The notes: a model not told the origin generated them from the letters alone. Positions 5,651-38,788 are shown, counted from the first letter of the stretch. The stretch is DNA of 64,000 nt from an uncultured Bacilli bacterium (GCA_944350315.1 CALVON010000025.1:1208-65207), one strand, 5' to 3'. Translations and numbers: made by a program.

Positions 5651-6214
5651 TTAACTAACTGTTGTTCCAGTAAAGTTCTCTGTTTTGGCACCAATATATC
5701 CGACAAATTCAGAATTAAGAACACTATTGTCTACCATATTTCCATCTATCCATAAGTAAATAGTAAAACTGGTATTTTCTTCAGTTAAAGGATAATTTTC
5801 AACGACATTAACTATGCTATTATCAGTGTCATTGATATTTAAAAAGTTTCCTTTATTGGTGTATACTTGATCATTATTTTGTATTCCTACAACTTCCCAA
5901 ATAAATCCTTCAATGGCTAAATTAGGAGTTATTTTTTCTACATCAATATATATTGTTCCTGCGGCTAAGGCACTATTCTCAGCCATTTTTATATTTACTG
6001 TCGTACTAAGTCCATCTTCTTTTTGTTTACCAATTTTTAATGGGCCATTAATAGTTGTTCCTCCAGTATAAATAACTTCAAATTTCTTAGATTCAGAATT
6101 GACAGAGTTCTCATTACCACTTGAACTTGATGCTAAATAAGAGAATGTTGCTCCAACAATGATTGCTGATAGTAATAAAACGGCTAATATATAACATATA
6201 ATTTTTTTCAACAT
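5651..6214 (-). CDS. TasA/camelysin-like protein with SipW-type signal peptide
   Basis: Signal ends GATFSYL; C-terminal FTIYLWIDG...NSEFVGYI strand pair. Confidence 0.7.
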   Translation of the reverse strand: MLKKIICYILAVLLLSAIIVGATFSYLASSSSGNENSVNSESKKFEVIYTGGTTINGPLKIGKQKEDGLSTTVNIKMAENSALAAGTIYIDVEKITPNLAIEGFIWEVVGIQNNDQVYTNKGNFLNINDTDNSIVNVVENYPLTEENTSFTIYLWIDGNMVDNSVLNSEFVGYIGAKTENFTGTTVS

Positions 6215-6229
6215 TTTATTACCTTCTTT

Positions 6230-6799
6230 CTACTTTTTTACAGCGCTATTAACATTTATTTTGCCACTAAAATTCTTATTCATCAAATTATTTTGATTTG
6301 TGTTATCTTCACTTAACCAAATATATAATTCATAATTATATGTTTTAGGATAAGAGTCAGGGGTAATTATTGTCATAGGTAGTAGTTTTAATGTCGTATC
6401 ATTTCCAATATTGCTAAAGTCCCCACTAGCAACAGTGATGTCATCTTGTAGTAATTCATATTTATAATTTTTTATTTTAAGTTTTGGATCTATAGCAATA
6501 TTTATTAGTGATATTTCTATTCCAACTTCATATTGTTTTAAATTTTCATTGACAGTAATTGTAAAACTATTTTTATTTGCATAATTATATCTATCTTCAT
6601 CATAAATAGGCATATTTTGACTTGCTTTAATATATTCTGTTTGCGAAAAAATTACCGTTGGTACTTCTTTAATAGTATTTCCAGATACATTAGTTTGTGC
6701 ATCCTTATAAGCATACCAACTATAAGTAGCCCCAAATGTAAGGATAACTATTGTGACAATAGTGAACGTAAGTATAATTATCATTTTTTTAAATTCCAC
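6230..6799 (-). CDS. TasA/camelysin-like protein with SipW-type signal peptide
   Basis: Signal ends GATYSWY; C-terminal YELYIWLSE...QNNLMNKNFSGKINV. Confidence 0.72.
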   Translation of the reverse strand: MEFKKMIIILTFTIVTIVILTFGATYSWYAYKDAQTNVSGNTIKEVPTVIFSQTEYIKASQNMPIYDEDRYNYANKNSFTITVNENLKQYEVGIEISLINIAIDPKLKIKNYKYELLQDDITVASGDFSNIGNDTTLKLLPMTIITPDSYPKTYNYELYIWLSEDNTNQNNLMNKNFSGKINVNSAVKK

Positions 6800-6892
6800 T
6801 TTATCACCCTCACTCTACTATTTACTATATAATGATACCATAATTTAAAAATAATATCAATGTTATCTTTTTATTTTATAAAAAAGAACTCT

Positions 6893-7885
6893 TTATAACT
6901 TACTTAGAGTTCTTACCATTTGATATGAATAGCCCATTTCATTATCATACCAGGCAACAATGTGGACTAGCTGTTTTCCATCTACTTCAATTATATTAGT
7001 TAAATTACCATCGACAGTGGCTCCATAGGTTGAAGATATTATATCAGATGATACTATTGGATCATCTGTGTAATTTATAGTTTCATTCATGTTATTTTTA
7101 AAAGTTTCGTTAATTTTTTCTTTGGTTACATTTTCTTTTAATTCGACAACTAAATCAACTAGTGAACCATCTGATACTGGTACTCGTATTGCTGAGCCTA
7201 GTATTTTGCCATCTAAATTAGGTAATACTTTGCCAATTGCTTTAGCGGCTCCAGTTGATGTTGGGACTATGTTCATTGCACAAGCTCTACCACGTCTTTC
7301 ATAAATTCCTTTTTTGTGGGCTACATCAAGGGTCACTTGATCGTTTGTATATGCATGGATAGTTGTCATATTGCCCTTTACTATTTTAAAATTATCGTCT
7401 AATACTTTTAATACTGGTGCTAGACAATTGGTCGTACAAGAAGCAGCTGAAACAATAATGTCATCTTCAGTTAAAATATCATCATTAACGTTATATACAA
7501 CTGTTTTCATATCCCCTTTTCCAGGTGCTGATATTAATACTTTTTTTGCTCCTGAATTAATGTGAAGCATAGCTTTTTCTTTACTTGTAAATTTTCCAGT
7601 ACATTCTAATACTACATCAATGGCTAATTCTTTCCATGGCAAGTTTGATGGATCTAGCTCGCTAAAAACCCTCACTTTATGATTATCAACATAAATAAAA
7701 GCATCATCATAAGTTACATTTTTATCATACCTTCCATGATTTGTGTCATATTTAAGTAAATATGATAATTCTTCTGGTGTCGATAAGTCATTGATTGCTA
7801 CTACTTCCATGTCATCTAATTGTTCAATAATTCTAAACACTAATCTTCCTATTCTTCCAAAACCATTAATTGCTATTTTTTTCAT
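6893..7885 (-). CDS. gap: Glyceraldehyde-3-phosphate dehydrogenase type I
   Basis: INGFGRIGR, ASCTTNCLAP, WYDNEMGYS. Confidence 0.98.
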   Translation of the reverse strand: MKKIAINGFGRIGRLVFRIIEQLDDMEVVAINDLSTPEELSYLLKYDTNHGRYDKNVTYDDAFIYVDNHKVRVFSELDPSNLPWKELAIDVVLECTGKFTSKEKAMLHINSGAKKVLISAPGKGDMKTVVYNVNDDILTEDDIIVSAASCTTNCLAPVLKVLDDNFKIVKGNMTTIHAYTNDQVTLDVAHKKGIYERRGRACAMNIVPTSTGAAKAIGKVLPNLDGKILGSAIRVPVSDGSLVDLVVELKENVTKEKINETFKNNMNETINYTDDPIVSSDIISSTYGATVDGNLTNIIEVDGKQLVHIVAWYDNEMGYSYQMVRTLSKL

Positions 7886-7898
7886 AATTACCTCATTT

Positions 7899-8375
7899 CT
7901 ATTTTATTAAGATTTCCCCATTTTGGGCTAAATCTTTAATTTCTCCTTTTTCAAATCCTACTAGAGCTCCTACTAATATGTCAATTTGTGTATCACTATT
8001 GTTAACTATTTTTAAAGAGATACTTCTTGTCTGATTTGGTTTAATAATATTTTCTAATAAATCAAGTGAATCTTCTGATAAACTTACTATTAAACCATCA
8101 ACTTGGGTATTTGGTTCTATCATGTAATAATACATACCATATTTTACTGTTTGTGAATAAGTATTTGTTAGAACTATATCAACATATTTTTCTTCGTTTG
8201 GATTTATAATTATTTCTTTATTTGATTTTTCTTTTAATTGATATATAAAATTATAATTGGCTTCGGACTCTTCTAAAGTTGTATCTTCTTGATTATAAGC
8301 AAATGTTGTATATAGTGTTATTGAGCTTAATACAAGAAAAAATAATAAAATAATAATTATTGTTCTTTTTTTCAT
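7899..8375 (-). CDS. Secreted protein with SipW-like signal peptide end (TTFAY)
   Basis: KKR + hydrophobic core + YTTFAYN; beta-rich body; immediately downstream of prepilin peptidase. Confidence 0.5.
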   Translation of the reverse strand: MKKRTIIIILLFFLVLSSITLYTTFAYNQEDTTLEESEANYNFIYQLKEKSNKEIIINPNEEKYVDIVLTNTYSQTVKYGMYYYMIEPNTQVDGLIVSLSEDSLDLLENIIKPNQTRSISLKIVNNSDTQIDILVGALVGFEKGEIKDLAQNGEILIK

Positions 8376-8418
8376 AATACCTCCTTCTTATTTTTAACAA
8401 TTAAAATCTTTTTATGTT

Positions 8419-9183
8419 TTAATTAATCAAAAAGTTAATAATATCTGAAAAATTTAATCCCCATATATATAAAATTATTCCGGCCATGCTCAAGAAAGGT
8501 CCAAAGGGTATTATATTATCTTTTTTAAATATTAGTAAAAATAGAGCAATTGGAAAAGCAATAAATGTTGCAAAGAAAATATTACATATGGACATTGGAT
8601 ATCCTATTACTAATCCTACTAAAAACATTAGTTTTATATCTCCTCCGCCAAGAGACTCTTGTTTAAACATGATATCACCAATTTTTTTTATCAATATCAT
8701 AGTTATAAATGAGCCTAATCCAGATGCAACTTTAAAAGCTGTTTCATATAGGCCAATATCTATTATGTCAACAACAATGATAGAAAATATAGCAATAATT
8801 AATACTTCATCTAAAATTATCATATATTCAATATCACTTATAATAATTATTATTAGACTAGAGACAAAGATGAGAGCTACTATCAACTGAAGTGAATAAC
8901 CAAATACATGGTAACAGACGGCAAATAATATACCCGTACATATCTCCATTAAAATATAACTAATTGGCATTTTTGCTTTACACTTTCGACATTTACCACC
9001 TTGTATTAAGTAAGATATAATAGGTATTAGTTCATACCATTTTAAATAGTGATTACAATTTTCACAATGTGATGGTGGGCTAATAATCGATTTTCCTTTG
9101 GATAATCTCGAAGCTATCACGTGATAAAACGAGCCCATAACACTACCGAATACGAAAAAAATAGTTAAGTATAAGTATTCCAT
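8419..9183 (-). CDS. Prepilin peptidase (A24; PilD/ComC)
   Basis: SHCENC...ELIPIISY...GKCRKC, ISDIEY, LGGGDIKL, IPFGPFL. Confidence 0.95.
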   Translation of the reverse strand: MEYLYLTIFFVFGSVMGSFYHVIASRLSKGKSIISPPSHCENCNHYLKWYELIPIISYLIQGGKCRKCKAKMPISYILMEICTGILFAVCYHVFGYSLQLIVALIFVSSLIIIIISDIEYMIILDEVLIIAIFSIIVVDIIDIGLYETAFKVASGLGSFITMILIKKIGDIMFKQESLGGGDIKLMFLVGLVIGYPMSICNIFFATFIAFPIALFLLIFKKDNIIPFGPFLSMAGIILYIWGLNFSDIINFLIN

Positions 9184-9195
9184 ATAAAACTCCCC

Positions 9196-10533
9196 TTATA
9201 TAATTGTGCTATATATATCAAACATAGGTACTACAACAGCTAATAAGATAATTCCTACAATAACTGCTAACATGATTATCATGACAGGTTCTATTAAACT
9301 TTTAAGTCTAGATATAATATTAGTTTGTTCTTCTTGATAATATGCGGCAACATGTTCCATCATTTCACCTAGTTTACCAGTTTTTTCACCAGTTACTAAC
9401 ATTTCATAGGCAGTTTCTGGAAATGCCCAATGATTTTTAAAAGCGACAGACACGCCATTTCCTTTACTTAAATTATTAATTGAGTCATTAATTATTTTTT
9501 TATAAATTTCATTTTCAGTAATTCTACTTAAAATATCCATACTATCAGTTATAAAGACATCATGCTTAATCAAAGTAGAAAAGGTACTGGTAAATATTAC
9601 TAATTGATTATATTTAATAATATCCTTAACAACAGGAATATGCATAACAATATATTGAAGATAATATTTGAATTTTTTAGATGTTTTATAAAAGGTTGTA
9701 ATTGATAAAACAATAATTAAAATTATTCCTAAAATAAAATACCAATAATTAGTTACAAACTCACTCATATTCATAATACTAATAGTTATTTGTGGTAAAT
9801 TTGAGCCTGTTGTTTCATACATTGATGTAAATGATGGAACAACATATGTTATAACAAAGGTTAAAACAGCTACTGCAAAAATCATTAAAACAGAAGGATA
9901 TGTCATAGCATTGATAATTTGCTTACGATTACTATCTTGTCTTTTATAGTAAGCGGCCATATCATCAAGAACCTCAGTTAAGTCTCCGGTCATTTCTGAT
10001 GTCTTTAACATATTAATTAACATTTTAGGAAAAACTTTTCCTTGCTTTTCTAGGCATTGACTAAAAGATAGTCCTCTATTTAGATTAAAGACAATTCTTC
10101 TATATAGCATTTGTACACTTCTTTTTTTACTTTGATGGCTTAATATTTCCATTGAATCAAGAAGTGGTATACCTGATTTTACATAAGTAGATAATTGAGT
10201 TAAAAAGAATGTTAAATCTTTAGAACTCATTTTTCTAGTAGATGATAAATTTGCTAGGCCTAAACTAGTAGATAGTTTATCTTCTTCAATAGAAATAATT
10301 TCATACCCTTTATTTAAAAGAAAAGACTCTACGCTAACTTTGTTTTCAGCATCAAAGTAGCTTTCAATTATTTTCCCATCAGATTGTCTCACTTTGTATT
10401 TATATCTTTTTAGTTTATTGCTTGTATCATTGGTGGTTTTATCATTTAAATTGTTATTTAATTGATTAACAGGATTAATTAGTTTAGTATTATTTCCATT
10501 ATTGTACATATTAGGATTTTGACTATTATTCAC
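9196..10533 (-). CDS. Type IV pilus/T2SS F-family platform protein (PilC-like)
   Basis: FLTQLSTYVKSGIPL, AMTYPS, GEKTGKL, LIEPVMI...VPMFDIY. Confidence 0.93.
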   Translation of the reverse strand: MNNSQNPNMYNNGNNTKLINPVNQLNNNLNDKTTNDTSNKLKRYKYKVRQSDGKIIESYFDAENKVSVESFLLNKGYEIISIEEDKLSTSLGLANLSSTRKMSSKDLTFFLTQLSTYVKSGIPLLDSMEILSHQSKKRSVQMLYRRIVFNLNRGLSFSQCLEKQGKVFPKMLINMLKTSEMTGDLTEVLDDMAAYYKRQDSNRKQIINAMTYPSVLMIFAVAVLTFVITYVVPSFTSMYETTGSNLPQITISIMNMSEFVTNYWYFILGIILIIVLSITTFYKTSKKFKYYLQYIVMHIPVVKDIIKYNQLVIFTSTFSTLIKHDVFITDSMDILSRITENEIYKKIINDSINNLSKGNGVSVAFKNHWAFPETAYEMLVTGEKTGKLGEMMEHVAAYYQEEQTNIISRLKSLIEPVMIIMLAVIVGIILLAVVVPMFDIYSTII

Positions 10534-10644
10534 AATTTCACCACCTTTTACTTTTTACTTATATTATAATTGTATCACAAATATTATTTTTTTTAAAACT
10601 TTTTTTATATTTTTACATATATTAGTATAGGAAGGGATATTAAT

Positions 10645-11064
10645 ATGAATCCACAAAGATTTTTTATACCAAATATGTATAATATGAGAATGCCTGCTGC
10701 TTCAATGATGAGAATGGGAAGTACGGGATCTAGAGGAATTGGTTTATTTAATAGACTGGGAATTAATTTTAAAAATTTTAGTTTTAGTGGGTTACTTAGT
10801 GGTGCTAATAAAACTTTAAACGTTGTCAATCAAACAATTCCACTTGTTAGACAAGCAAAACCGATGGTAAACAATGTAAGATCAATGTTAAAACTAGCAA
10901 GAGCATTTGGAAATGAGACTATTTCTAAAAATAATGCTAATAATATAGAAAATAATAAAATGAGTAATAATATAAATATTACAAACACCAATAGTAATGG
11001 TAAAGAGATAATTGATAATAATGTGAATAATTATTATGATAATTATCCTAATTTCTTTATATAA
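10645..11064 (+). CDS. VrrA/YqfQ-like sporulation-associated protein
   Basis: GLLSGANKTLNVVNQTIPLVRQAKPMVNNVRSMLKL core, Asn-rich tail. Confidence 0.65.
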   Translation: MNPQRFFIPNMYNMRMPAASMMRMGSTGSRGIGLFNRLGINFKNFSFSGLLSGANKTLNVVNQTIPLVRQAKPMVNNVRSMLKLARAFGNETISKNNANNIENNKMSNNINITNTNSNGKEIIDNNVNNYYDNYPNFFI

Positions 11065-11098
11065 AAAGGACTTTATGTTTTTAAATAAAGTCCTTTTT
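11063..11098. terminator. Bidirectional intrinsic terminator
   Basis: AAAAAGGACTTTAT...ATAAAGTCCTTTTT between convergent genes. Confidence 0.75.
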
Positions 11099-20244: not shown

Positions 20245-22323
20245 TTATGGTTTATAATTATAAATTTGATAATTATTATCTTTAATGTTTATTTCTATGC
20301 TTCCATTTATATCGGTTCGATGGATGGTACAATAATTATATAATGTATTTAACACTTCATTACTGGGATGATGATACCAATTATTTTTCCCTACAGAAAT
20401 TATACAATTTTGAGGATTAATGGTGTCGATAAAGAATTTACTAGAAGAAGTATTTGAACCATGATGAGCAATTTTTATAAAATCAATGTCTTGTAAATTA
20501 TATTTTGCAATCAAAGAATCTTCTACCTTACTACTAGCATCACCCATAAATAAAAATTTAAAATTATTTATTTTAGTATAAATAATAATTGAATTATCAT
20601 TTTCATCTTTATAGTTATTATTATTTAAGAAATATAACTTATTATTTGATATATTTAATTCTTTAGGACAACTATAGTAAGGAATTTCTTTTTTATCTAA
20701 TATTTTTTTTAAGTTTTGTTCTGATTCATTAAAATCTCCACAATTGAAAATTATTTTTTTGACTTTAAAATTTTCGACTAAATTAATCGCTTCTCCAAGA
20801 TGATCATAATCTCCATGAGTTAAGATTAAGTAATCAATTTGATTAATTCCAATACTTTTTAGATATGGAATTATTTTATCTATAGCTATACTATAACTAC
20901 TATTTATTAAGCCTCCAGTATCTATTAAAATATTTCCTTTATTATATGGATATTTGATAAAAATAGAATCTCCTTGGCCTACGTCTAAATATGTTATTTT
21001 AGTATAAGGGTTTAAATAGATATTGTATTTGTGTAGCAAAATAATAAAAAATATATAAATATGCTTTTTATTATTTAAAAATAAAATAATAAAAAGATAG
21101 TAAATTATAATTAATAGAAAATGCGGTTTTGAGAAATTAACTATTCCTAAATGATATTTGGATATAATTAAAGAGATATTTTGCAATAAGTTTGTGGCTA
21201 TCTTTAAAATTATTGATAGTTTAGGAATAATTAAGCTAATTAATGATAAGGGAAATATTATTATACTTACAAAAGGAATAAATATAATATTTAAGATAAT
21301 GGATAAAAAATTTACTTGGTAAAAATTATAAAGACATATTGGCAATGAAATTAAAAAAGAAATTAAAGATGTATAGAATGATTTTAATATTTTATTGTTA
21401 ATAGTAGATATTTTTTTACTATACAATACTAAAAAAAATGATATTAAATATGAATATTGAAATGATATGTTATAGAGGTAAAACGGGTTTATGATAAGCA
21501 TAATTATTAATACAATAAGCATAATATCAAGTTTTTTTATTTTTAAATTAAATAATTTATTGAAAGAAAAAATAATATACATAGTAATACTTCTTATAAC
21601 AGATGGTGAAGAACCAATAAGAATAGCATAAAATAATAGAAAAGTAATTACTACTCCATAGTTATAATAATTATTGTAAGAAATTCTTTTGACGAAATAA
21701 AAGATAATAGAAGCAAAAAGGCTGATATGCATTCCTGATATTGAAAATAAATGTGATATTCCATTTTCACGAAAACTTTCTAAAATCTTTTCATCTAATA
21801 ATGAAGAATCTCCAAGAATAAAGATACTTATGTATTCATTAGCGTTTGTTATGTTAGCAATATGATTAGCAATTTTTTCTTTTAAGTAATATATAATATT
21901 AGTATTGTTAGAAATTTTTTTAATGCTACTTGCTGTTAGAGTATAATAAATGCCATTATAAGATAAGTATTTTTTATAGTTAAAAAGATTAGGAATAGTG
22001 TTATTTGAAGGTTCTTTTAAATTACCTACTACATATATTTTATCTCCTAAAGAAATATCTTCTTCTAATGTATCATAATAATTTACAACTAGTTTTTCTT
22101 TGCCTAAAATATAGATAGTTGTTTTTTCTTCAGTTATTTTTATTTTATATACCTTGCCATAAAATTCTGTATCGGATATATTATAAATACTTTTTGAGGT
22201 TATAAAATTTGTTTTTACAAGAGCAAACAAGACAGTAAATAAACAAAATATTTTAAATAAATATTTATGTTGTAATATATATCTTAATCTCTTCGTATGT
22301 CTTTTCACCAATTCCATCAACAT
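20245..22323 (-). CDS. comEC: DNA uptake channel ComEC/Rec2 (start uncertain)
   Basis: GISHLFSISGMH, YLDVGQGDS, ILTHGDYDHLG, KIAHHGS. Confidence 0.95.
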   Translation of the reverse strand: MLMELVKRHTKRLRYILQHKYLFKIFCLFTVLFALVKTNFITSKSIYNISDTEFYGKVYKIKITEEKTTIYILGKEKLVVNYYDTLEEDISLGDKIYVVGNLKEPSNNTIPNLFNYKKYLSYNGIYYTLTASSIKKISNNTNIIYYLKEKIANHIANITNANEYISIFILGDSSLLDEKILESFRENGISHLFSISGMHISLFASIIFYFVKRISYNNYYNYGVVITFLLFYAILIGSSPSVIRSITMYIIFSFNKLFNLKIKKLDIMLIVLIIMLIINPFYLYNISFQYSYLISFFLVLYSKKISTINNKILKSFYTSLISFLISLPICLYNFYQVNFLSIILNIIFIPFVSIIIFPLSLISLIIPKLSIILKIATNLLQNISLIISKYHLGIVNFSKPHFLLIIIYYLFIILFLNNKKHIYIFFIILLHKYNIYLNPYTKITYLDVGQGDSIFIKYPYNKGNILIDTGGLINSSYSIAIDKIIPYLKSIGINQIDYLILTHGDYDHLGEAINLVENFKVKKIIFNCGDFNESEQNLKKILDKKEIPYYSCPKELNISNNKLYFLNNNNYKDENDNSIIIYTKINNFKFLFMGDASSKVEDSLIAKYNLQDIDFIKIAHHGSNTSSSKFFIDTINPQNCIISVGKNNWYHHPSNEVLNTLYNYCTIHRTDINGSIEINIKDNNYQIYNYKP

Positions 22324-22942
22324 TTAATAATTCTTCAATACTTTTAAAATCGCCATTCTTTTCTCGATAGTCAATAATAGTTTTTGCTTTAGATTCTCCT
22401 ATTCCTGGTAATGTTTGTAATTGTTCTAGGGTTGCTGTATTAATATTTATTAGTTTTGAATCATTATTACCTATTTCATCGGTTATTTCCGTATTGATAC
22501 AACCATCATTTTTTATATTAGGACAAACGCATTCGCTTTCTACATATTTTATTACAGTATCTACTACATTTGAATTTTTAACTTCTTCGTTAGTGTAAAT
22601 TATAATAACCATCTCATCAGTTATTTTTTTAGCTAAATTTATAACTGATGTATTGGCATCTTCATTTAATCCTCCTGCTAAAGATATTACATCATTAACG
22701 TATTTACCACACTCTATTTGATATACTCCAGGTTTTTTTACTGCCCCTTTAATATCTACTGTACATTCTTGTATTTGATTATCATCTTTTTCTACAATGT
22801 CATTTAGTAATAGATCTTCTGTTTCATTTTCTAATTGATATTCATTATTATTTAGATTTTTTTGTATAATAAATAGGATTATTATTATAATGCATACTAT
22901 AAAAAGGGTTATTAAGTATTTAAATTTTTTTATTATTTTCAT
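22265..22942 (-). CDS. comEA: Competence DNA receptor ComEA
   Basis: TM, VDIKGAVKKPGVY (SLBB), ININTAT...LPGIGESKA (HhH). Confidence 0.93.
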   Translation of the reverse strand: MKIIKKFKYLITLFIVCIIIIILFIIQKNLNNNEYQLENETEDLLLNDIVEKDDNQIQECTVDIKGAVKKPGVYQIECGKYVNDVISLAGGLNEDANTSVINLAKKITDEMVIIIYTNEEVKNSNVVDTVIKYVESECVCPNIKNDGCINTEITDEIGNNDSKLININTATLEQLQTLPGIGESKAKTIIDYREKNGDFKSIEELLNVDGIGEKTYEEIKIYITT

Positions 22943-23036
22943 TTTCCTCCTTTGGCTCTTCATATATATTATTATAAAAAAATTTAAATTTTTCTTTTAA
23001 TTTTACAAAAAAAGCAAAAGTTTTTTTCTTTTACTT

Positions 23037-25959: not shown

Positions 25960-25974
25960 TTTCTTACTCCTTTA

Positions 25975-27126: not shown

Positions 27127-27154
27127 ATGTTTTTTATATCCTCCAAAAAGTATC

Positions 27155-28262: not shown

Positions 28263-28310
28263 AAAACCTTAATAATGATGTTATCATCAAAATTAAGGAT
28301 TTTTTTATAA

Positions 28311-28386
28311 TGGTGACCTGTATGGGATTTGAACCCATGAATGTTACCTTGAGAGGGTAATGTGTTAACCATTTCACCAACAGGCC
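28311..28386 (-). tRNA. tRNA-Glu (anticodon CTC)
   Basis: GGCCTGT/ACAGGTC acceptor stem, TTACC-CTCTCAA-GGTAA anticodon arm, GGTTCAAATCC, encoded CCA. Confidence 0.93.
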
Positions 28387-28436
28387 ATAAATGTCTTATA
28401 AAAAGACATTAATAATTTTAACATATCTTGTTTTTT

Positions 28437-30092: not shown

Positions 30093-30115
30093 ATAAATCA
30101 CTCCTTAATAATAAG

Positions 30116-30189
30116 TGGTTGCCCCAGCTAGATTCGAACTAGCGATGATGGAGTCAGAGTCCACTGCCTTACCGCTTGGCTATGGGGCA
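30116..30189 (-). tRNA. tRNA-Gln (anticodon CTG)
   Basis: TGCCCCA/TGGGGCA stem, GCCAAGCGGTAAGGC D-arm, GTGGA-CTCTGAC-TCCAT, TTCGAAT, CCA. Confidence 0.93.
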
Positions 30190-30253
30190 ATATTTTTCTG
30201 TTGACGTTTATGATTATATCATAAAAAGATGGAAAAAAAAAGACTTTCGTCTT

Positions 30254-31048
30254 TTAAAAACAAAAATATTTTATAAGAATGATAATAGCAAAAATTACTC
30301 TGTAAATGGCAAAGATTGAAAAATCATGTTTTTTGATATAATTTAGTAAAAATTTAATTGATATTACTCCTACAACAAAGGCAATAAATATTCCTAATAA
30401 AGTTTCATAGCTAAATGCTAAGTTGCCTATTTCTAAAATTGTAGCTCCTGCTATTATTGGGACTGACAATAAAAAGGTAAATTTAGTAGCAGCACTTTTT
30501 GATAATCCCATTAATCTAGCTGATAAAATTGTAGTTCCACTTCGTGAAAATCCAGGAATAATAGCTAGTGCTTGTGATAAGCCAATAATAAATGCTTGGT
30601 GTAACCTAATATGTTCATAATCTGTTTCTATTTTGTAGTGTTTATCTGCCCATCTATCACCAAGATAGATTAAAACGCCCATAACAGCAAGTGAAGTCGC
30701 AATTAACCAAATTTTTTGTCTAAATACATTTTCAACTACATCATCTAATAAAAAACCTATTAATGCCCCAGGAATGGTTGCAATAACTAAATACCAAAAC
30801 ATTTTATTTTCAAATGATTCTTTTTTCTTTGTTACTTTTGCTAAAGCTCCTTTAAATAGTGACCACCACTCATTGAAAAAAACAGTTAAAACGGCCAATA
30901 AAGTTCCAAAATGTAGGGCAATGTCAAAAGCCATTGATGATTGTTCCCAACCAAGTAAATATGGAACTAATATTAAATGAGCAGATGATGATATAGGTAA
31001 AAACTCACCTATTCCTTGAATAATTCCTAAAATAATACTTTTTAACAT
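30254..31048 (-). CDS. uppP: Undecaprenyl-diphosphate phosphatase
   Basis: GIIQGIGEFLPISSSAH, PGFSRSGTT. Confidence 0.96.
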   Translation of the reverse strand: MLKSIILGIIQGIGEFLPISSSAHLILVPYLLGWEQSSMAFDIALHFGTLLAVLTVFFNEWWSLFKGALAKVTKKKESFENKMFWYLVIATIPGALIGFLLDDVVENVFRQKIWLIATSLAVMGVLIYLGDRWADKHYKIETDYEHIRLHQAFIIGLSQALAIIPGFSRSGTTILSARLMGLSKSAATKFTFLLSVPIIAGATILEIGNLAFSYETLLGIFIAFVVGVISIKFLLNYIKKHDFSIFAIYRVIFAIIILIKYFCF

Positions 31049-31072
31049 AATGCATCTCCTTAATTAATTATA

Positions 31073-33412
31073 TTACTTTTTTTGAATAAATTCTAGTAAA
31101 CTAATAAACATATTAATATATTTTGGCTCTAAGCCAGATTTTTTTAGTTTACGCAACCCTATTCTTTTTTTGTTTATAGGTAATTCGCTAAATATTATGG
31201 CATCAATTTTTTCTTTTAAAAGAGTATTTATTTCTAGATCGTCTAGTATTCCTTCAATTTCTTCATTAATGACACTAATAGTTTCTATTTCAATATTTTT
31301 TCCAATTATATTTACTTCAATTGGTTGATAAACATCAATATCATTTAATTTTACTATAAGATCATTTTTTTCAATTTCATATTTATGCTCTTTTTGTTCA
31401 TTTTGATAATTTACGATAACTTTTTCTGGACTTTTCATATTTCTAAAACGGAGTAGATAATTTCTATTTGGAATGTTATAATTGCCATCTTTTCTTACAA
31501 TAGTAAATTTATATCCATTTTCTACTTTATCTAGATTCATTTTAGTAATTAAGAAATTCTGTTTATTGTTTAAAGATATTCCATCATCTTCATATAATTC
31601 ATAACTACCATATAGACCATTTTCAGCAGGAAAAATTTGTAGTTCCATATTTGTTGGTACTTCGGTTGTTTCTTCTAGTGACATTGGAATAATTGAACCT
31701 TCTTTTATAAATATTGGATATTCTTCATCTTTATAAAATTCAACATAATATTTGTTTCCAGTAAATTTTTTACCTGTTGTATAATCATACCATATACCAT
31801 TAGGAATGAATATTCTTTGTACAACACGATTCATCTCTAGATTTTTTCTTTTAATAATTGGACTTATCATAATTTTACTACCAAAGAAATATTGATTTAC
31901 ATAGTTTGGTTCATCATATATTTTAGGATATTTATAATATAATGGTTGAATGATTGGAACACCGAACTGATGATATGTATATCCTTCATTATATATATAT
32001 GGTACTAGTTTATTTCTTAATTGCATGTATTCTCTAATGACTGATAAATTTAGTTGATTCCATTTCCATGGTTCTCTTTTATAGTACTTACCAGTATCAC
32101 TGGCTAAGATAAAGATTGGATTAAAGACACCAAATTGAATATATCTTATATATAATTCATCATCTTCAATTCCACCATAATAGCCACCGATTGCATGGGC
32201 ATACCAAGATATTCCCATATTAGCAGCACTATTATTGTAATTTGGTAAAACTCTTAATGTATCCCAACTTACTCTAGTCTTGCCACTATATATAATTGGA
32301 TATCTATGTGGAGCAATGCCTGGATTACGTGATAATATAATTCCTAGTTCATTTAAATTTGCGATTGTATAGTGATAATGATTTAATAAAAACAATCCTT
32401 GTAAATCCGCTTTGTTATAATAATCAATATTAAAAATATTAATACCGGTATTTTTTAAACTACTTAGAACAATATTTAAGTAAGAATTGATTGTATTATT
32501 ATTTAATGGAACAAAACTTATATAATCTTTATAATTATTGATACTTCCTACTAGACTTGGATATAGTGGATCGTTATGATATATTGGTAATTCTGGGTTT
32601 AATGTCAAGCCAAATTTTTGAATTTTATTTTGATAATAGGTATGTAAGGATGATATATCAAACAACGTTTTATCATATGAAAAATTCTCAATATTATTAT
32701 GCCATTTATTTCCTAAAAGAAAAACAGAAATAGGAATATGATTATCATTAAATTTCTTGATGATATTATCAATATCATACATGTTATAAGGGTCATTTTT
32801 GTACCACCATGATCCAAGAGCATATCGCGGTATCATTGGAGGATAACCAGTAAGATTAAAATAATCTTGTAAACATAATCCTAAATCTTGTTTATATACA
32901 AAAAGATATAAATCAAAAAAATCTTCTCTATTTACAAACATTTCATTATCAATGGCAAAAGTATTATCATAAATAGTTGCAAACCCATCAAACGAATATA
33001 ATCCTTTATTTAATTTCAAGTTTTTATCTAAATCATCTAATGAATAATTTATTGTTCCAAGGTTTCTTACTTCTTTTATTTCTGGATACCATTCTTTATC
33101 AGTACCATTAATTACTACTTTAATATTTTTACCATTTATGGGAGCACTTTTGATATATGTAAGAGTAAAATACTCCGTTGTAATTGTCAAAGAAATATCT
33201 GTTTGATTTATAGTGTAAGGAGTGTATCCAAAGTCTCTTTTAACCACTAAGGCTGTAGCTCTATCTTCAAATTTATTATTTTTATTATATTCAATTCTAA
33301 TTAGCCTTGGAGATAAGACAGTAAAACGATATTTATCTCCTCTTACAATATTTCTTCTATTTGCTATCAAGTCTTTTGAATTTTTGACAAAATACGAACA
33401 CAAACCAGCCAT
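31073..33412 (-). CDS. GH31 family protein (altered catalytic acid/base)
   Basis: LTGYPPMIPRYALGSWW, HRYPIIYSGKT, HAIGGY, RYIQFGVFNPI, LYEDDG. Confidence 0.85.
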   Translation of the reverse strand: MAGLCSYFVKNSKDLIANRRNIVRGDKYRFTVLSPRLIRIEYNKNNKFEDRATALVVKRDFGYTPYTINQTDISLTITTEYFTLTYIKSAPINGKNIKVVINGTDKEWYPEIKEVRNLGTINYSLDDLDKNLKLNKGLYSFDGFATIYDNTFAIDNEMFVNREDFFDLYLFVYKQDLGLCLQDYFNLTGYPPMIPRYALGSWWYKNDPYNMYDIDNIIKKFNDNHIPISVFLLGNKWHNNIENFSYDKTLFDISSLHTYYQNKIQKFGLTLNPELPIYHNDPLYPSLVGSINNYKDYISFVPLNNNTINSYLNIVLSSLKNTGINIFNIDYYNKADLQGLFLLNHYHYTIANLNELGIILSRNPGIAPHRYPIIYSGKTRVSWDTLRVLPNYNNSAANMGISWYAHAIGGYYGGIEDDELYIRYIQFGVFNPIFILASDTGKYYKREPWKWNQLNLSVIREYMQLRNKLVPYIYNEGYTYHQFGVPIIQPLYYKYPKIYDEPNYVNQYFFGSKIMISPIIKRKNLEMNRVVQRIFIPNGIWYDYTTGKKFTGNKYYVEFYKDEEYPIFIKEGSIIPMSLEETTEVPTNMELQIFPAENGLYGSYELYEDDGISLNNKQNFLITKMNLDKVENGYKFTIVRKDGNYNIPNRNYLLRFRNMKSPEKVIVNYQNEQKEHKYEIEKNDLIVKLNDIDVYQPIEVNIIGKNIEIETISVINEEIEGILDDLEINTLLKEKIDAIIFSELPINKKRIGLRKLKKSGLEPKYINMFISLLEFIQKK

Positions 33413-33527
33413 ACTATCACCCTTTATTTTAATTTATTATATCATAACTTGCAAAAAAAAGAAATATTTGTTTAAAAAGATAATAATTAAATTTAAAAAG
33501 ACCTTAATGGTCTTTCATGTAATAAAA

Positions 33528-34079
33528 TTATTTACTTCTATTTTTCTCGCTTGATGAATTTATTTCTTCTAAAAAGCTTTCCGAAGCAATATCCCCAAGT
33601 GAGGATGCATGATCAAGGTAGAATTGTGCTAAAGGGTCATTTTTTTCTGGACCTTCACTTTTATAATAAATTATTCCTAAAGTTCTTATTGCATCAACAT
33701 TCCCTAACTTAGATGCTTCTTTATACCATTTTATAGCTTCATTAGTATTTTGTTCTACACCTAATCCTTTTAAATATAACATTCCTAACTTGCACATTGC
33801 GTCATCATGACCTTTTTCAGCTGCGGCTTCTAACCAACTTTTAGCAGTTTGGTAATCTTGAGAACAACCAATACCATATAAGTACATTCTTCCTAGCATG
33901 TACATTGCTCCGATATGACCTAAACTAGCTGCTTTTTCATATAGTTCTATAGCTTTTTTATAGTTTTGTTTAACAACATAGTTACGATAGTTATATCCAA
34001 AATAATATCTATTTCCTTCAAAATAATCTTCATTTGCTAGTTCTTCTTGTGTTCTTCCTTTTTCATAATTACTCTCCAT
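33528..34079 (-). CDS. Sel1-repeat protein
   Basis: AMYMLGRMYLYGIG...AAAEKGH repeats. Confidence 0.9.
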   Translation of the reverse strand: MESNYEKGRTQEELANEDYFEGNRYYFGYNYRNYVVKQNYKKAIELYEKAASLGHIGAMYMLGRMYLYGIGCSQDYQTAKSWLEAAAEKGHDDAMCKLGMLYLKGLGVEQNTNEAIKWYKEASKLGNVDAIRTLGIIYYKSEGPEKNDPLAQFYLDHASSLGDIASESFLEEINSSSEKNRSK

Positions 34080-34153
34080 TTACAAAAACTCCCTTCGTAA
34101 TATTGATTTTTTATATTATATCATATTTTATAAAAAATAACAAATGGGGCTTT

Positions 34154-36436
34154 TTAACTGTTTTTAATAATAATCCTTGTAGTTAAATTATCACTAGCAT
34201 TATCTTTTGTATAATTATAATTAAAAATTGTAGAACTACTCTCGTTGGCTATTCCTCCTCTTGATAACCAATTATTAACACTGTCCATATAACTATAATT
34301 ATTACTATCCCATATGCCATTATTTAATAATAATTCTTTAGTGGCATCTCCAAGGATAAAACTGTTATTATAATATAAATCATAATCATTATTACTTATA
34401 GCTATGTTTTGGAAATTAGAATTAGTTAACGATATTTCACTATCTTTGGTTGTGTAATTTGCCATAGTAAATTCTGCTTTACTACCGGCCATATCATATA
34501 CTCCATAAATGTTTAGTGTTGTACTATCTAAATTGTTGGTTCCACTAATATATGTATTGTTGGCTTCAATTTTTTTGCATGTATTATTTTGACATACTCC
34601 ATATTTAGAGTGCGATAAGTACACGATTGCTCCCCATTCACTATTTTTTATAACACTATATTCATTACCTAGTTTTTTTATCGATTGATAGAAGTTAGCT
34701 AAATTGTTATTACTCCAAACGTTACCACCATACTTACTTTCTAACTTTAATGAGGTATTTTGGCAATTGCTTTTATCTGTTTGGTTACAATTACTATCGG
34801 TTGTGGATACTTCATATTTACTAACCCATATTCCTGATAATTCATTATCTACTGTAGTAAATGCGGGATGAGTATAATACTTTCCATTATCAGTTTCATT
34901 AACAGGAGTTACCTTCAAGGTATCACTATAACAATTACTGTTTTCACAATATATTGTTCCTGAAGTCGAAGTATCTCTTTCGAAAATAATATCAATTCCA
35001 TTTTGATAAGCATTATAACTATCTATACCAGACTCTCCAGTAACATTCCATAATTTATATTTAAATCTCGGTATCCAAACATAATATGAATTAATATCAT
35101 CATTATTAATGGCTGTTCCGTTAGGTCTTGATAAGTAATATTCTTTTACAGTCATTGGGGTAAATTCATTGTATCCTTCAATTAAACCATTATAAATAAT
35201 ATCTATATCATCTTTATAATTATTATTAATTTCATCTTCGGTTAAAATACTATTATATATATATATATCACTCAATATTAGATTGCTTACTTTATCATTA
35301 TTAATATTTGTCCCTACTTTAAATGATGAAGGGGATTTAATTTTTGATGATATTTTGGCTGATGACAATAATAGACCGTTGGAATAAAATTTAACTGTAT
35401 CTTCATCGTAAGTAAATCCTAAAGTATACCACATTTTTTCGCTTAAAATATATGCTGATGAAGTAACTTTAACGTCACCATTTTCAAAAACAAATTTTTT
35501 TAATGATGAATTATAATAATAACTTATTTTATTATTAGTTAGGATATATATATTATCCGTATTTATTTCATCTAATTTTATTTTAACAATAGAACTTATT
35601 TTATCATATTGATAATTTTGAAGCCCTATATCAAGATAGTCTTCTTGAATAATTAAATTACTATTATTGATAGTAGGATTATCAATTATTAAATTGTTAT
35701 TTCCTGTTACATCATATATTTGCTTACTACTTTCATTTAATATCGCCGTATTAGCCCAAATACTAGAATCATAGTCATACCAAAGATATTTTTTATTAGT
35801 GTTACTTGAATCAGCTTTTTTCCATGTATTTTCATTTTTGTCATAATAAATTGGAATCATATCTTCAGTTAAGTTTGGGTAATTAGCTCCGCTTGAATCA
35901 AGCGTTTTATAGATAGCTGATCCGGAAGATACAACTTTAGCATCAAATTTTTTTCCAAGTTCACTATTAGGAGTATCAATATCTAACCAAATACTAATTT
36001 TAAATGTTAATTGTTCGTTTGGACGAATTATAATATTAGAAGCAATAATACTTTCAAGATTTGATAAGGTATCTGGCATATTATCATTTACTTTTACTTT
36101 AATATATTTACTATTTATAATATTTTCATCATCTGTAGATAACATTTTTAAATCAAATAAATAAGTAAGAGTTCCATTATTTTTTATAGTTAAAGTATAT
36201 GGAGTAAGTTTTTCACCATCACTATCATACATTGGAAAGGCAGAATCTAGTTTTATTTGTTCATCTTCAATAAATTGTAAATCTAATATTCCAGTATTAT
36301 AGTTAAATGATTCCGTATTATCTGATTTTAAAAATAAAGAATAAGTTGTATCACTAAGGCTGACAATAACGAAAAATATTGCTAGTGCCATTAAGTAATT
36401 TTTTTTAGTTTCTATAAATTTTAACATTATTATCAT
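34154..36436 (-). CDS. TasA-like domain + LamG/ConA-like insertion + FGE/CLec-fold domain protein
   Basis: DTTYSLF signal end, NNGTL, FKISIWLD...GKKFDAKV; WYTLGFTYD...FYSNG...IYNSILTEDEI; GVYDMAG, WLSRGG. Confidence 0.72.
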   Translation of the reverse strand: MIIMLKFIETKKNYLMALAIFFVIVSLSDTTYSLFLKSDNTESFNYNTGILDLQFIEDEQIKLDSAFPMYDSDGEKLTPYTLTIKNNGTLTYLFDLKMLSTDDENIINSKYIKVKVNDNMPDTLSNLESIIASNIIIRPNEQLTFKISIWLDIDTPNSELGKKFDAKVVSSGSAIYKTLDSSGANYPNLTEDMIPIYYDKNENTWKKADSSNTNKKYLWYDYDSSIWANTAILNESSKQIYDVTGNNNLIIDNPTINNSNLIIQEDYLDIGLQNYQYDKISSIVKIKLDEINTDNIYILTNNKISYYYNSSLKKFVFENGDVKVTSSAYILSEKMWYTLGFTYDEDTVKFYSNGLLLSSAKISSKIKSPSSFKVGTNINNDKVSNLILSDIYIYNSILTEDEINNNYKDDIDIIYNGLIEGYNEFTPMTVKEYYLSRPNGTAINNDDINSYYVWIPRFKYKLWNVTGESGIDSYNAYQNGIDIIFERDTSTSGTIYCENSNCYSDTLKVTPVNETDNGKYYTHPAFTTVDNELSGIWVSKYEVSTTDSNCNQTDKSNCQNTSLKLESKYGGNVWSNNNLANFYQSIKKLGNEYSVIKNSEWGAIVYLSHSKYGVCQNNTCKKIEANNTYISGTNNLDSTTLNIYGVYDMAGSKAEFTMANYTTKDSEISLTNSNFQNIAISNNDYDLYYNNSFILGDATKELLLNNGIWDSNNYSYMDSVNNWLSRGGIANESSSTIFNYNYTKDNASDNLTTRIIIKNS

Positions 36437-36451
36437 CGCCTCTTTTCTATT

Positions 36452-38104
36452 TTATCCTTCTATCCATGAGTATACTTTTATTGTTCCATAAAAATATTTA
36501 TTTTGCATAGAGTTAGGAATTGTTTCATAATCTGTCCATAACATTAATCGTATATCTACGGTATCATATGGTTCTATGACATCATCTAGTAAGATATAAT
36601 TGGTTCCTTTTATGTTTAAAGAATTACTAATATTATCTTGATACCAAATGTTATTATCTAAACGTTTGGCTTGATAATATTTTTCTTTTACTTGAAGTTG
36701 ATACCGGATATATTGAACATCTAAATCAGTTTTATCAGATTTTTCTATAACAAGTCGATATTTTATTTCTTTATCAGTATTATTGGTTATGGTAAATATA
36801 TTATCTTCTTCTTCTAATTCATCAGTTGTAATTTTTTCAATTTTACCATCTTTATCATACAATATTCCATCTTTAGGAACTATTGCTATATAATCACTAG
36901 TTTCTATCACTGCCGTTTTTTCAAATTGGCTAACTTTTTCATCTTCAATGTTAGTTGTTTTGGTCAACTCTTCTTTTTCACCTTCAACTGTAGAAATTTG
37001 ATTATTTTGATATTTTATATTGCTATTTTCATCAGTGTAATATGTTTTATTGTTATAATTAAATACGGCTCCACCATTAGTGTAATATGTTATATTATCA
37101 ACTTTATAGCTTACTTCAACATATATGTTATCAACAATTTCATATATGTCATTATCATTAATAATTATACTATTACTTTTTCTTACACTAATTGTTTTAG
37201 TGCCATCTTTAATGATGGCTCCACCATCTTGATAATAATCGATGACTATGCCATTTTTCATTTTTTTAGTTTTAATAATTGTAGCAGCATTATTATTCTT
37301 AAATAAAACATCATTATCAGTGATATTAAGATCATTCTCGCTTCTAACAATAAAATTTTGATTATTTTTTTCTACTAAAATGGTTCCATCATAATAATAG
37401 TTTAACTTTATTTTTCCTATGCTCTTTGTTTCTTTTAAGTATGTTACTTTATTGTTTGAAATGTAATTGTCTGAAATATCTTTAGCATTTCTAACAAACA
37501 TATCTATTTCAGAATTAGTTATTTCTGCAGAACCGTCAGAAAAATACGAAACGGTTCCCCAAGGGTATTCCTTAGTGGTTGTTAAATAAATATCTTTTAT
37601 AGTAGCATTTGTGTTTATTACTCCATATTTATCAATTCCATAATCACCATTTTCTAATGGATTGATTCTAGTTATTAAGTTACTATTTTTCATTATTTTT
37701 AAGGCAGTTTTGTCACTATAAAATTTAATAATATAGTTACTAGATTCGACTACTTTAATTGTTAATACTTCACCATTTGGTTTAAATTTACTATTATTTA
37801 AAAATTGATTTTTAGCAGCATCTTCTGTAAGTGGAATAGGACTTCCTGTTATATATTTATTTTCATCAGTCAAAGATGTTTCTAGAGGAGTCTCAGTAAC
37901 GGTTGGCTGATTGCTTTTATAGATATTAGATATGAAGATAAACATTCCGCCAATAAATATAAGAAAAGCTAGGACTAATAAAATAGCTAGGAGACGAAAA
38001 CGATGCTTATGCCAAAAGGCAACTATGTAGTTCTGTTTTTCTTCAAGAACAATTTGTTCTTCTTGCTTATTTAATTCGACAACTTCTAATTTCTTTTTAA
38101 ACAT
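36452..38104 (-). CDS. Membrane-anchored beta-repeat protein with C-terminal TasA-like domain
   Basis: N-terminal TM; repeats FYSDKTA/YFSDGSA/YYYDGTI/YYQDGGA/YYTNGGA; IRLMLWTD...MQNKYFYGTIKV. Confidence 0.62.
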   Translation of the reverse strand: MFKKKLEVVELNKQEEQIVLEEKQNYIVAFWHKHRFRLLAILLVLAFLIFIGGMFIFISNIYKSNQPTVTETPLETSLTDENKYITGSPIPLTEDAAKNQFLNNSKFKPNGEVLTIKVVESSNYIIKFYSDKTALKIMKNSNLITRINPLENGDYGIDKYGVINTNATIKDIYLTTTKEYPWGTVSYFSDGSAEITNSEIDMFVRNAKDISDNYISNNKVTYLKETKSIGKIKLNYYYDGTILVEKNNQNFIVRSENDLNITDNDVLFKNNNAATIIKTKKMKNGIVIDYYQDGGAIIKDGTKTISVRKSNSIIINDNDIYEIVDNIYVEVSYKVDNITYYTNGGAVFNYNNKTYYTDENSNIKYQNNQISTVEGEKEELTKTTNIEDEKVSQFEKTAVIETSDYIAIVPKDGILYDKDGKIEKITTDELEEEDNIFTITNNTDKEIKYRLVIEKSDKTDLDVQYIRYQLQVKEKYYQAKRLDNNIWYQDNISNSLNIKGTNYILLDDVIEPYDTVDIRLMLWTDYETIPNSMQNKYFYGTIKVYSWIEG

Positions 38105-38131
38105 ATTATCATTCCTAACTATTATTAAATA

Positions 38132-38788
38132 TTATTCTTTAATTAATTTAGTTTTTTGACCAAGTTTTTTAAACATTTTCATTATGTCATAAGACAAAAT
38201 AATTAAACAAGGGATAAGAACTACGATGATTAATCCGCCTTTGCTAGATAAAATATCTTGAAGATATCCTAATTTGGGTATTTTTAAAATTACTTTACCT
38301 AAAATATTATCATTAGGAACCAATGCACTGTCAGCAACATTATTATTATCTCCTCTTGTCCGATAAGAATAGGTTCCAAGTGATTCATCATAAAATTTAT
38401 CAACTATACGGTGAGTTATTGATATTCCTCCAAATCTGGTATCAGGAGAAATAAAAGTGATAATATCTCCTATTTCTAATTCGTCTTCAGCTACTTTTTT
38501 GGTGACTACGATATCTTTAATTTGAATTTCGGGAAGCATACTACCTGATAGAACAACATAGGCATTAAATGTAGGAGCAGAATAATCTCCTTTCATAGCT
38601 CTTATTTTTATATCTGCAATATACAAAAGGAGTGTTCCTCCTACTAGTAATAGAAAAATAAAAATAGCATATGACATGACACTTACGAGATATCTAAAAG
38701 CATTTTCTTTGTGTTTAATTATTTTTACTTTATAGTGTTTTACTTTAAAGATATTATTATTACCGGCTAGTTCAATATTTGTATCCAT
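38132..38788 (-). CDS. sipW: Signal peptidase I, SipW/ER-type (Ser-His dyad)
   Basis: VVLSGSMLPEI, GDIITF, ITHRIV, TRGDNNNVAD, IPKLGY. Confidence 0.88.
   Translation of the reverse strand: MDTNIELAGNNNIFKVKHYKVKIIKHKENAFRYLVSVMSYAIFIFLLLVGGTLLLYIADIKIRAMKGDYSAPTFNAYVVLSGSMLPEIQIKDIVVTKKVAEDELEIGDIITFISPDTRFGGISITHRIVDKFYDESLGTYSYRTRGDNNNVADSALVPNDNILGKVILKIPKLGYLQDILSSKGGLIIVVLIPCLIILSYDIMKMFKKLGQKTKLIKE

Follow-up and report, generated by a model that had tools for sequence, protein, structure and literature searches.

Do the secreted proteins encoded near a SipW-type signal peptidase in an uncultured gut bacterium make up a TasA-like fibre, and how far does the set of its subunits extend? 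The question is raised by a 64,000-nucleotide (nt) stretch of DNA (GCA_944350315.1 CALVON010000025.1:1208-65207, in our own numbering G000:C25:1208-65207; the whole stretch is called the window here) from an uncultured Bacilli bacterium, in which a prediction made from the sequence alone (the original prediction) described a dispersed SipW and TasA/camelysin-like fibre system between positions 5,651 and 38,788. The host assembly consists of 1.18 Mb in 46 contigs with approximately 26% G+C and is 95% complete; related records are metagenome-assembled genomes (MAGs) of uncultured Bacilli, Tenericutes or Clostridiales, and Clostridium sp. CAG:914. The queried part of the sequence is present in the 20 sequencing runs listed, none of which is recorded as RNA, and the four that cover most of it are chicken gut metagenomes from one study. 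We show that genes of the window belong to a large unnamed protein family, which is characterized by an N-terminal module and by a non-random signal-peptide end resembling that of SipW substrates. We propose that the window is part of a genome-wide, SipW-dependent surface-protein system that is built on this one module and may form a fibre, a proposal that we regard as evenly poised between right and wrong.

Proteins are named here by the first position of their coding stretch (Table 1). The strict signal-peptide end G[AG]T[FYL][AS][YW] is present in 5651, 6230, 11099, 11748 and 12523, and the remaining two of the seven proteins for which such an end had been claimed, 7899 and 34154, carry looser forms of it. 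Among the 1844 open reading frames (ORFs) of at least 60 amino acids (aa) from the same genome, which served as chance control, the strict motif is found in ten; all ten carry it within the first 60 residues and all ten are family members by an independent hidden Markov model (HMM), compared with a mean count of 0.015 and a maximum of 1 in 200 rounds of shuffled N-termini, and the motif is therefore not the product of chance. Three sets of sequences were used for the family: A1, an alignment of 10 sequences; A2, a profile of the window paralogues; and A3, a family alignment of 48 sequences. Since A2 itself contains window sequences, the independent model (the foreign HMM) was built from 66 sequences of other genomes, each less than 45% identical to any ORF of this genome. 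A2 detects the family at 22 places in the genome, or in 18 ORFs, and the foreign HMM detects it in 17 ORFs including the five with the strict motif.

Pairwise BLASTP between window proteins, run with no correction for composition, joins 11099 to the N-terminus of 12523 (3e-18), 11748 to 5651 (6e-14), 5651 to 6230 (2e-8), 34154 to 6230 (2e-5) and the C-terminus of 36452 to 5651 (8e-6), and gives weak matches for 7899 (best 3e-3). The C-terminal strand pair that had been noticed by eye, in 36452 among others, is seen in A1, where ...IWLD... has a nearly invariant W and is followed some 30 residues later by a G that hardly varies either, and where 36452 aligns with its C-terminal 170 aa; the T of the signal-peptide motif is nearly invariant in both A1 and A3. 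When aligned by hhalign to a profile of foreign sequences, the N-terminal domain of 34154 gave 41% probability (E 2.8e-4, 158 columns) and the C-terminal domain of 36452 gave 49% (E 1.8e-4, 95 columns), and 7899 aligned to the family through its signal peptide alone (hhalign 27 columns; independent E-value in the HMM search 0.86). In the ESM Atlas, 9 of the 30 nearest clusters of residues 1-200 of 34154 bear the name camelysin (score 0.91), and a camelysin cluster is a lead for 7899 (score 0.84), for which a sequence-profile search of the PDB gave no match; an orthologue of 7899 directly follows pilD in a genome of the same genus, G245 (E 6.5e-51). Judged by these comparisons, 5651, 6230, 11099, 11748 and 12523 can be firmly assigned to one N-terminal domain family of approximately 195 aa, 34154 and 36452 are probably distant members, and the membership of 7899 is doubtful. 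The count of about eight subunits in the original prediction is thus reduced to five firm and two probable members and one doubtful one, and the set is genome-wide (17-22 copies) rather than local to the window.

The family extends far beyond this genome. An exhaustive HMMER search with A2 returned 2388 cluster representatives at E<=1e-3, 512 at E<=1e-10 and 27 at E<=1e-30, and among the 150 best matches listed the domain is N-terminal, in proteins of 157 to 2362 aa. Of 148 foreign representatives of the family, 120 carry this motif class, whose consensus is G-G-T-(F/L/Y)-A-Y-W; the motif is kept among family members at less than 45% identity, and the remainder of the signal peptide varies. 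Long foreign members contain Flg_new, ALK_LTK_GRD and Gly_rich_2 domains behind the N-terminal module, and proteins consisting of module and head elsewhere in the host genome reach 1402 aa. The family domain is covered by no Pfam or NCBIfam model in any window protein. In a sample of the class, 33 of 399 genomes are family-positive, among them 23 of the 49 genomes of the window's own taxonomic family; a phylum-level sample of 299 genomes, searched with A3, contained six with the family, and these six belong to the same class. The ORFs that the foreign HMM detects, 17 in number, amount to 8245 aa, and together with 34154 and 36452 about 9.6 thousand aa are reached, corresponding to roughly 2.4% of the 1.18-Mb genome. 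A regular-expression scan of the genome ORFs found an LPXTG-type end in no family member; it gave five sorting-signal-like ends in other proteins, two of which are clear candidate substrates of PQTG type, and one sortase gene is located on contig C39.

The peptidase encoded at 38132-38788 is the only protein of the genome that matches TIGR02228, the model of archaeal and endoplasmic reticulum (ER)-type signal peptidase I, above the cut-off (97.2 bits vs 51.85, model positions 7-156 of 158). With 92.3 bits it falls under the equivalog cut-off of 190 for Bacillus SipW (NF046067), and by these scores it is SipW-like and not an orthologue of Bacillus SipW. The SipW type given to this enzyme in the original prediction is borne out by the model match; the translation shows LSGSMLP and ITHRIV, and the Ser and His of these SGSM and THR motifs may be the predicted catalytic pair, as in ER-type peptidases. 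In the window, sipW adjoins 36452 and 34154. G245 and a genome of another genus, G090, have sipW, a 36452-like membrane protein and a protein with the N-terminal module in the same order, the orthologues of 36452 directly following sipW (E 2e-170 and 7e-25, respectively); this membrane-anchored, family-like protein agrees with the membrane component of the original prediction. Among the 32 other family-positive genomes, at least 11 have a family match within about 4 kb of a TIGR02228 match. At all 12 loci chosen for this proximity (from 11 genomes), sipW stands beside one to three family genes, and these are typically located inside runs of genes for proteins of 180-260 aa; three further loci contain tandem arrays of four family genes, sipW being absent from the stretch fetched. 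Many genomes of the lineage also contain SipW-like domains fused to other sequence, in proteins of about 380-400 aa that match the model of ER-type signal peptidases over their N-terminal part (e.g. G245:C3:218502-218903, G090:C31:3098-3493 and several in G322), and the SipW-type matches reach eight per genome.

TasA of Bacillus subtilis is a jelly-roll protein that polymerizes by strand donation, the first 11 residues of the mature protein being the donor strand, and TapA has been proposed to supply the first strand for TasA (PMC9674648, the parts cited here). The AlphaFold2 (AF2) model of 11099, computed from an alignment of 48 sequences, has a mean predicted local distance difference test score (pLDDT) of 88.7 and contains a helix (residues 2-28), a stretch of low confidence (26-48) and a beta-sandwich (50-211). 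With this model Foldseek retrieved a single PDB entry at E<=1e-3, the TasA fibre 8aur (8.6e-4, probability 1.0), which is compatible with the TasA-like fold of the original prediction. Confidence in the 11099 monomer model is lowest in the residues that immediately follow the predicted cleavage site, although these residues are conserved. TIGR04088, the model of the SipW-cognate signal peptide, is the NCBIfam model matched by the largest number of A3 members (15 of 48 at E<=0.1), and some family relatives exceed the cut-offs of this model (19 bits) or of the camelysin/TasA model PF12389 (22.5 bits): L096:5704-6270 scores 29.3 and 27.7 bits, respectively, L092:5553-6152, whose cluster is named 'CalY family protein', scores 22.4 and 49.9, and L097:6921-7496 reaches 21.3 with TIGR04088. 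The PF12389 matches of relatives cover mostly the N-terminal 75-79 model positions, and in the class sample PF12389 was found in 4 of 151 genomes, each time across N-terminal model positions only.

One head among the window proteins is variable by a known mechanism. The last approximately 115 nt of 12523 are G+C-rich and A-poor within an AT-rich genome and contain the variable region (VR) of a diversity-generating retroelement (DGR), paired with a template repeat of 113 nt, rich in AAC codons, which is located on another contig just downstream of a paralogue (G000:C1:58014-58126). The VR of the window is 81% identical to the template, and 18 of its 21 mismatches fall on template adenines, which make up 30 of the 113 template bases (27%). 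The corresponding numbers are 21 of 25 for the copy on C1 and 17 of 28 for the copy on C39 (59939-60049); the copy on C34 (9909-10009) aligns with gaps. A single template seems to be shared by at least four VRs, which lie on the contigs C1, C25, C39 and C34. The hairpin downstream of 12523 folds as DNA with -19.1 kcal/mol (z -5.56; none of 200 shuffles was as good), and a nearly identical hairpin is found 3' of the VR in the C1 paralogue. The AF2 model of residues 196-618 (pLDDT 76, predicted template modelling score 0.85) is least confident in the variable part, its low-confidence stretch 389-411 of the head-domain model falling within the VR; Foldseek matched it at E<=1e-3 only to 5vf4, the Thermus DGR variable protein TaqVP, with three chains (best E 1.7e-5, 20% identity, 284 columns), and the FGE-sulfatase model of Pfam gave 21.9 bits, just under its cut-off of 23.3. 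The adenine-biased mismatches between template and VR, the hairpin and the TaqVP-like head model identify 12523 as a DGR target with a C-terminal head of C-type-lectin/FGE-sulfatase fold and the VR at its C-terminus. The hypervariable head of the original prediction is therefore real; what it had missed is the source, a DGR whose template sits on another contig. The lectin-type heads that it had proposed are also found: 34154 contains a Laminin_G_3 domain (32.6 bits vs cut-off 27.6) and a further domain, of C-type-lectin fold, whose homologue is found in 12523 (BLASTP against residues 252-613 of 12523, 4e-29).

The locus syntenic to the window in G245 is devoid of gene 12523, and the window copy has therefore been inserted or duplicated recently. 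In the relatives L031, L035 and L047, reverse transcriptases (RTs) with an IG...SQ motif follow homologous targets. A complete DGR cassette is present in L047 (5440-9229, a related MAG), consisting of target, template, bAvd (63.1 bits) and RT (RVT_1 68.5 bits), and its target joins the N-terminus of a type IV pilin (N_methyl 29.8 bits) to a head of the 12523 type. An RT is also encoded in G245, with no template-like repeat beside it. The only RT of the host genome (G000:C13:2651-3688, also L099:1276-2313) was considered as the DGR enzyme and ruled out, as it belongs to a retron of type III-A (PADLOC RT_III-A 348.7 bits), a defence-system gene unrelated to the DGR. In four chicken gut metagenome assemblies the region 12350-14400 is represented by many short contigs with paralogue-like differences; the fragmentation is consistent with a multi-copy, variable family and is no evidence of ongoing diversification.

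From these observations the following model is proposed. The module would be a jelly-roll or beta-sandwich domain of approximately 195 aa, always N-terminal and preceded by the conserved signal-peptide end. SipW would cut after the small residue of the motif; such cleavage of the family is fairly likely, given the motif class and the gene neighbourhood, and would free a conserved, beta-prone N-terminal segment. Through this segment the one-domain members 11099, 11748, 6230 and 5651 might assemble head-to-tail as in the donor-strand exchange of TasA and BsaA, which is plausible by analogy. Proteins that combine the module with a C-terminal head (C-type-lectin fold in 12523, Laminin-G and C-type-lectin fold in 34154) would join the same structure as adhesins; as the head of 12523 is rewritten by the DGR, the binding surface could change fast on a constant assembly module. 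That 36452 might act as base or nucleator beside sipW, in the manner of TapA, is speculative. A more complete version, in which a sortase-independent, SipW-processed heteropolymeric pilus of these small-genome gut Bacilli carries C-type-lectin adhesins at the tip or along its side, the DGR rewrites them continuously and in trans at several loci, heads are swapped between TasA-like and type IV pilin carriers, and pilC-pilD help in export or assembly, is in our judgement unlikely as a whole. Whatever the mode of assembly, the system is more modular, expanded and dispersed than tapA-sipW-tasA and includes a lectin head rewritten by a DGR.

Table 1. Positions of the family genes, the peptidase gene and associated elements in the window
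Feature	Position	Strand	Remarks
Single-domain family member, 187 aa	5651-6214	-	Foreign HMM 4.3e-19; GATFSY
Single-domain family member, 189 aa	6230-6799	-	Foreign HMM 2.5e-18; GATYSW
Doubtful member, secreted, 158 aa	7899-8375	-	Looser signal end YTTFAY
Single-domain family member, 212 aa, structure-modelled	11099-11737	-	Foreign HMM 4.1e-55; GATFAY
Single-domain family member, 192 aa	11748-12326	-	Foreign HMM 5.1e-27; GATFAW; syntenic orthologue in G245
Modular protein, 618 aa: family N-domain (1-195) and DGR variable-protein domain (196-618)	12523-14379	-	Foreign HMM 2.2e-68; GGTLAY
760-aa protein: family-like N-domain (~1-178), Laminin_G_3 (281-404), C-type-lectin-fold domain	34154-36436	-	Signal end DTTYSL
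Membrane-anchored 550-aa protein, candidate base or nucleator	36452-38104	-	Hydrophobic segment ~37-60, beta-rich middle, family-like C-domain ~380-546
SipW/ER-type signal peptidase I, 218 aa	38132-38788	-	TIGR02228 match; N- and C-terminal hydrophobic segments
DGR variable region, 113 nt, codons ~578-616 of 618 in 12523	12534-12646	-	Pairs with template repeat
Perfect 14-bp hairpin, ~75 nt downstream of the 12523 stop	12410-12447	-	As found beside DGR target sites
pilC (9196-10533) and pilD (8419-9183), type IV pilus platform protein and prepilin peptidase	8419-10533	-	
YqfQ-like gene	10645-11064	+	37 bits; divergent, upstream of pilC; kept there in 5/5 relatives

Several results weigh against the proposed SipW-dependent fibre. 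The searches with the SipW-cognate and Peptidase_M73 models that the original prediction had suggested came out negative for every window protein: the scores with TIGR04088 are 10.3-12.4 bits, 5651 having the highest, and the best score with PF12389 is 12.8 bits, over the signal peptide (residues 1-34) only. By eye, the signal ends of the window proteins are of the TIGR04088 motif class. Four further members from the host genome (L117-L119) also fail the curated models, with no match to PF12389 (L120, the fifth protein scanned, is not a family member by either ORF-level HMM). The alignment of mature domains with six PF12389-positive proteins in hhalign gave 10.6% probability (E 0.003, 83 columns), and a search of PDB sequences with the A3 profile did not retrieve TasA, the matches being N-terminal and transmembrane-like or pilin-like only (E 0.06 to 1.2). 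Because of this weak alignment, the absence of TasA from the PDB sequence search and scores of 10-13 bits, we do not file the window proteins under PF12389; they appear to share signal class, predicted fold class and gene context with proteins of the TasA kind. In the search of the host genome's ORFs, the foreign HMM missed 34154, 36452 and 7899. The co-occurrence with sipW that had been suggested as a check is complete, a SipW-type peptidase being found in 33 of 33 family-positive genomes, but it says little because such enzymes are so common (252 of the 399 genomes of the class and 47 of the 49 of the taxonomic family). The paralogues of about 600 aa are scattered, with a SipW homologue within 10 kb in 2 of 79 loci. 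Neither a DGR-type RT nor Avd was found in the 95% complete assembly with PF00078 and the DGR RT of a relative, so that diversification may be past rather than ongoing. Finally, the genome's other signal peptidase I, a bacterial-type enzyme (SPase I) on contig C16 (TIGR02227, 159.6 bits), could cut a T-x-A site.

Some of these results would be expected if the module were a stalk or attachment domain, released by cleavage or held in the membrane by an uncleaved signal anchor, with the heads displayed singly, the small members acting separately and no fibre being formed. This explanation, which we consider possible though on the unlikely side, agrees with the weak sequence link between the mature domain and PF12389 and with the single, mostly SipW-distant positions of the 600-aa paralogues. 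In addition, the TasA fold match of the 11099 model lies at background Z, AF2 draws residues 2-28 of 11099 as one helix through the motif, and DGR targets are often stand-alone surface proteins. It accounts less well for a signal-peptide end with an invariant motif, which would be typical of substrates of a dedicated peptidase, and for the tandem arrays of three or four one-domain members of about 200 aa that recur in relatives, some with sipW and some lacking it, and are hard to explain as stalks with no cargo. The mounting of a 12523-type head on a type IV pilin module in L047 also speaks against it, since the position of the N-terminal module is thereby suggested to be a slot for filament subunits. 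An improbable alternative is that the proteins are ordinary Sec substrates of the SPase I on C16, that SipW serves other proteins or its operon neighbours, and that the motif reflects the shared ancestry of the paralogues and not a recognition site. In its favour, SPase I accepts T-x-A sites with an aromatic residue behind them, the enzyme is present, and most family genes of the host genome are far from sipW. Against it, the motif persists in family members of less than 45% identity and in 120 of 148 foreign representatives, in signal peptides that otherwise vary; family relatives pass the SipW-cognate model, and in at least 11 other genomes sipW is found among clustered family genes.

The type IV pilus genes between the family genes provide the ground for the remaining alternative, to which we give hardly any credence, namely that the proteins are atypical pilins or pseudopilins, matured by the neighbouring PilD, with PilC as their assembly platform. 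The two genes are well identified (pilC: T2SSF 175 bits; pilD: A24_N_bact 105.5 and Peptidase_A24 42 bits) and the arrangement recurs: the yqfQ-pilC-pilD core is present in all five relatives examined, family genes are located within 6 kb of pilC-pilD in three of the five, and a gene with a SipW-type signal lies directly 3' of pilD in three of six foreign loci (G245, G090 and L076). The family also shows weak N-terminal matches to archaeal pilin/archaellin and UpsB (E 0.007 to 1.2). Against this, none of the eight candidates matches N_methyl or TIGR02532 or contains the prepilin site G/FTLxE, whereas a true pilin of the genome, 50604-51152, does match (31.8 and 27.5 bits, respectively), and the conserved motif of the family stands after the hydrophobic stretch and not before it. 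Near the 600-aa paralogues, pilC/pilD were found in 1 of 79 loci. In Clostridium perfringens, secretion of SipW-dependent BsaA oligomers and of BsaC is reported to depend in part on type IV pilus genes, a dependence that the authors describe as not definitive (PMC11580942, the parts cited here) and that the position of pilC-pilD among family genes echoes. A role of pilC-pilD in the export or assembly of the family proteins is speculative, and their adjacency is a lead toward the same link and no more. Two type IV pilin genes with canonical GFTLVE sites were noted in the genome, at 50604-51152 of the window and at G000:C39:60236-60670; the latter is directly 3' of a gene for a 1037-aa family protein and DGR target.

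Returning to the proposed SipW-dependent system, its closest counterparts are TasA/TapA/SipW of B. subtilis and CalY of B. cereus. They have in common an ER-type SipW peptidase, a signal peptide ending in G-G-T-x-A-aromatic, a mature domain of beta-sandwich or jelly-roll type (predicted here), a conserved segment just after the cut site, where TasA holds its donor strand, a sipW gene within the subunit gene cluster (in relatives) and a second sipW-adjoining protein as a possible TapA-like starter. The window proteins differ from TasA and CalY in scoring below the PF12389 and TIGR04088 cut-offs, in mature domains that are not confidently alignable, in having 17-22 dispersed paralogues instead of one to three, and in the fusion of the module to large adhesin heads, with proteins of up to approximately 1400 aa here and 2362 aa elsewhere. 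We know of no large-head fusions of TasA or CalY. The BsaA/TasA family as a whole is described as large, barely connected by sequence, and with several paralogues per operon (PMC11580942). In this the BsaA/BsaB-SipW-BsaC system of C. perfringens resembles the one described here: its proteins are remote TasA relatives barely joined by sequence searches, several paralogues are found per locus, heteropolymers have been proposed, and the anchor is the membrane and not a sortase product, as would fit a family in which no LPXTG-like signal was found (PMC11580942). It differs in its von Willebrand A partner, which is not seen here, and, in the parts of the published account cited, heads and DGR targeting have no place in it (PMC11580942). 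The published BsaA family comprises 2,172 proteins and may already include the family described here (PMC11580942).

On the side of the variable head, the nearest parallel is found in Bacteroides, where DGRs are reported to diversify adhesins of type V pili (10.1101/2024.11.15.621889, the parts cited here). Like those adhesins and TaqVP (5vf4), 12523 has a template/variable pair with adenine-specific changes and a C-terminal variable domain of C-type-lectin fold on a module of filament-subunit type; unlike them, its carrier module is SipW/TasA-like (type IV pilin-like in one relative) and not a type V pilin (10.1101/2024.11.15.621889). It also differs in that one template is shared by at least four targets, spread over four contigs, and in that no RT or Avd was found in the assembly. 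A literature search gave no paper that joins "diversity-generating retroelement" with "TasA", the published BsaA-family list being outside that search, and a search on TIGR04088, SipW-cognate and SipW-dependent returned unrelated work only. If the module polymerizes, Gram-positive bacteria would have a third way of making pili, next to the sortase and type IV kinds, used here by an uncultured, genome-reduced gut lineage; the TasA/BsaA superfamily would then extend from matrix fibres to modular adhesin carriers, and a Gram-positive counterpart of the DGR-diversified pilus adhesins of Bacteroides would be at hand, with attachment to host or partner cells directly testable. Even without a fibre, the family, which is large and unnamed, comprises 2388 cluster representatives and has a signal motif that looks dedicated, merits a model in the domain databases.

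Two other groups of genes in the window were noted. Sporulation-type genes are found at 17855-19311 and 56960-57733 despite the 1.18-Mb size of the genome, all of them scoring under the equivalog cut-offs (SigE-like 313.6 bits, cut-off 339; SpoIIGA-like 93.1, cut-off 209.55; SigG-like 332.9, cut-off 372). The region 20245-22963 encodes ComEC (275.5 bits) and a ComEA-like protein.

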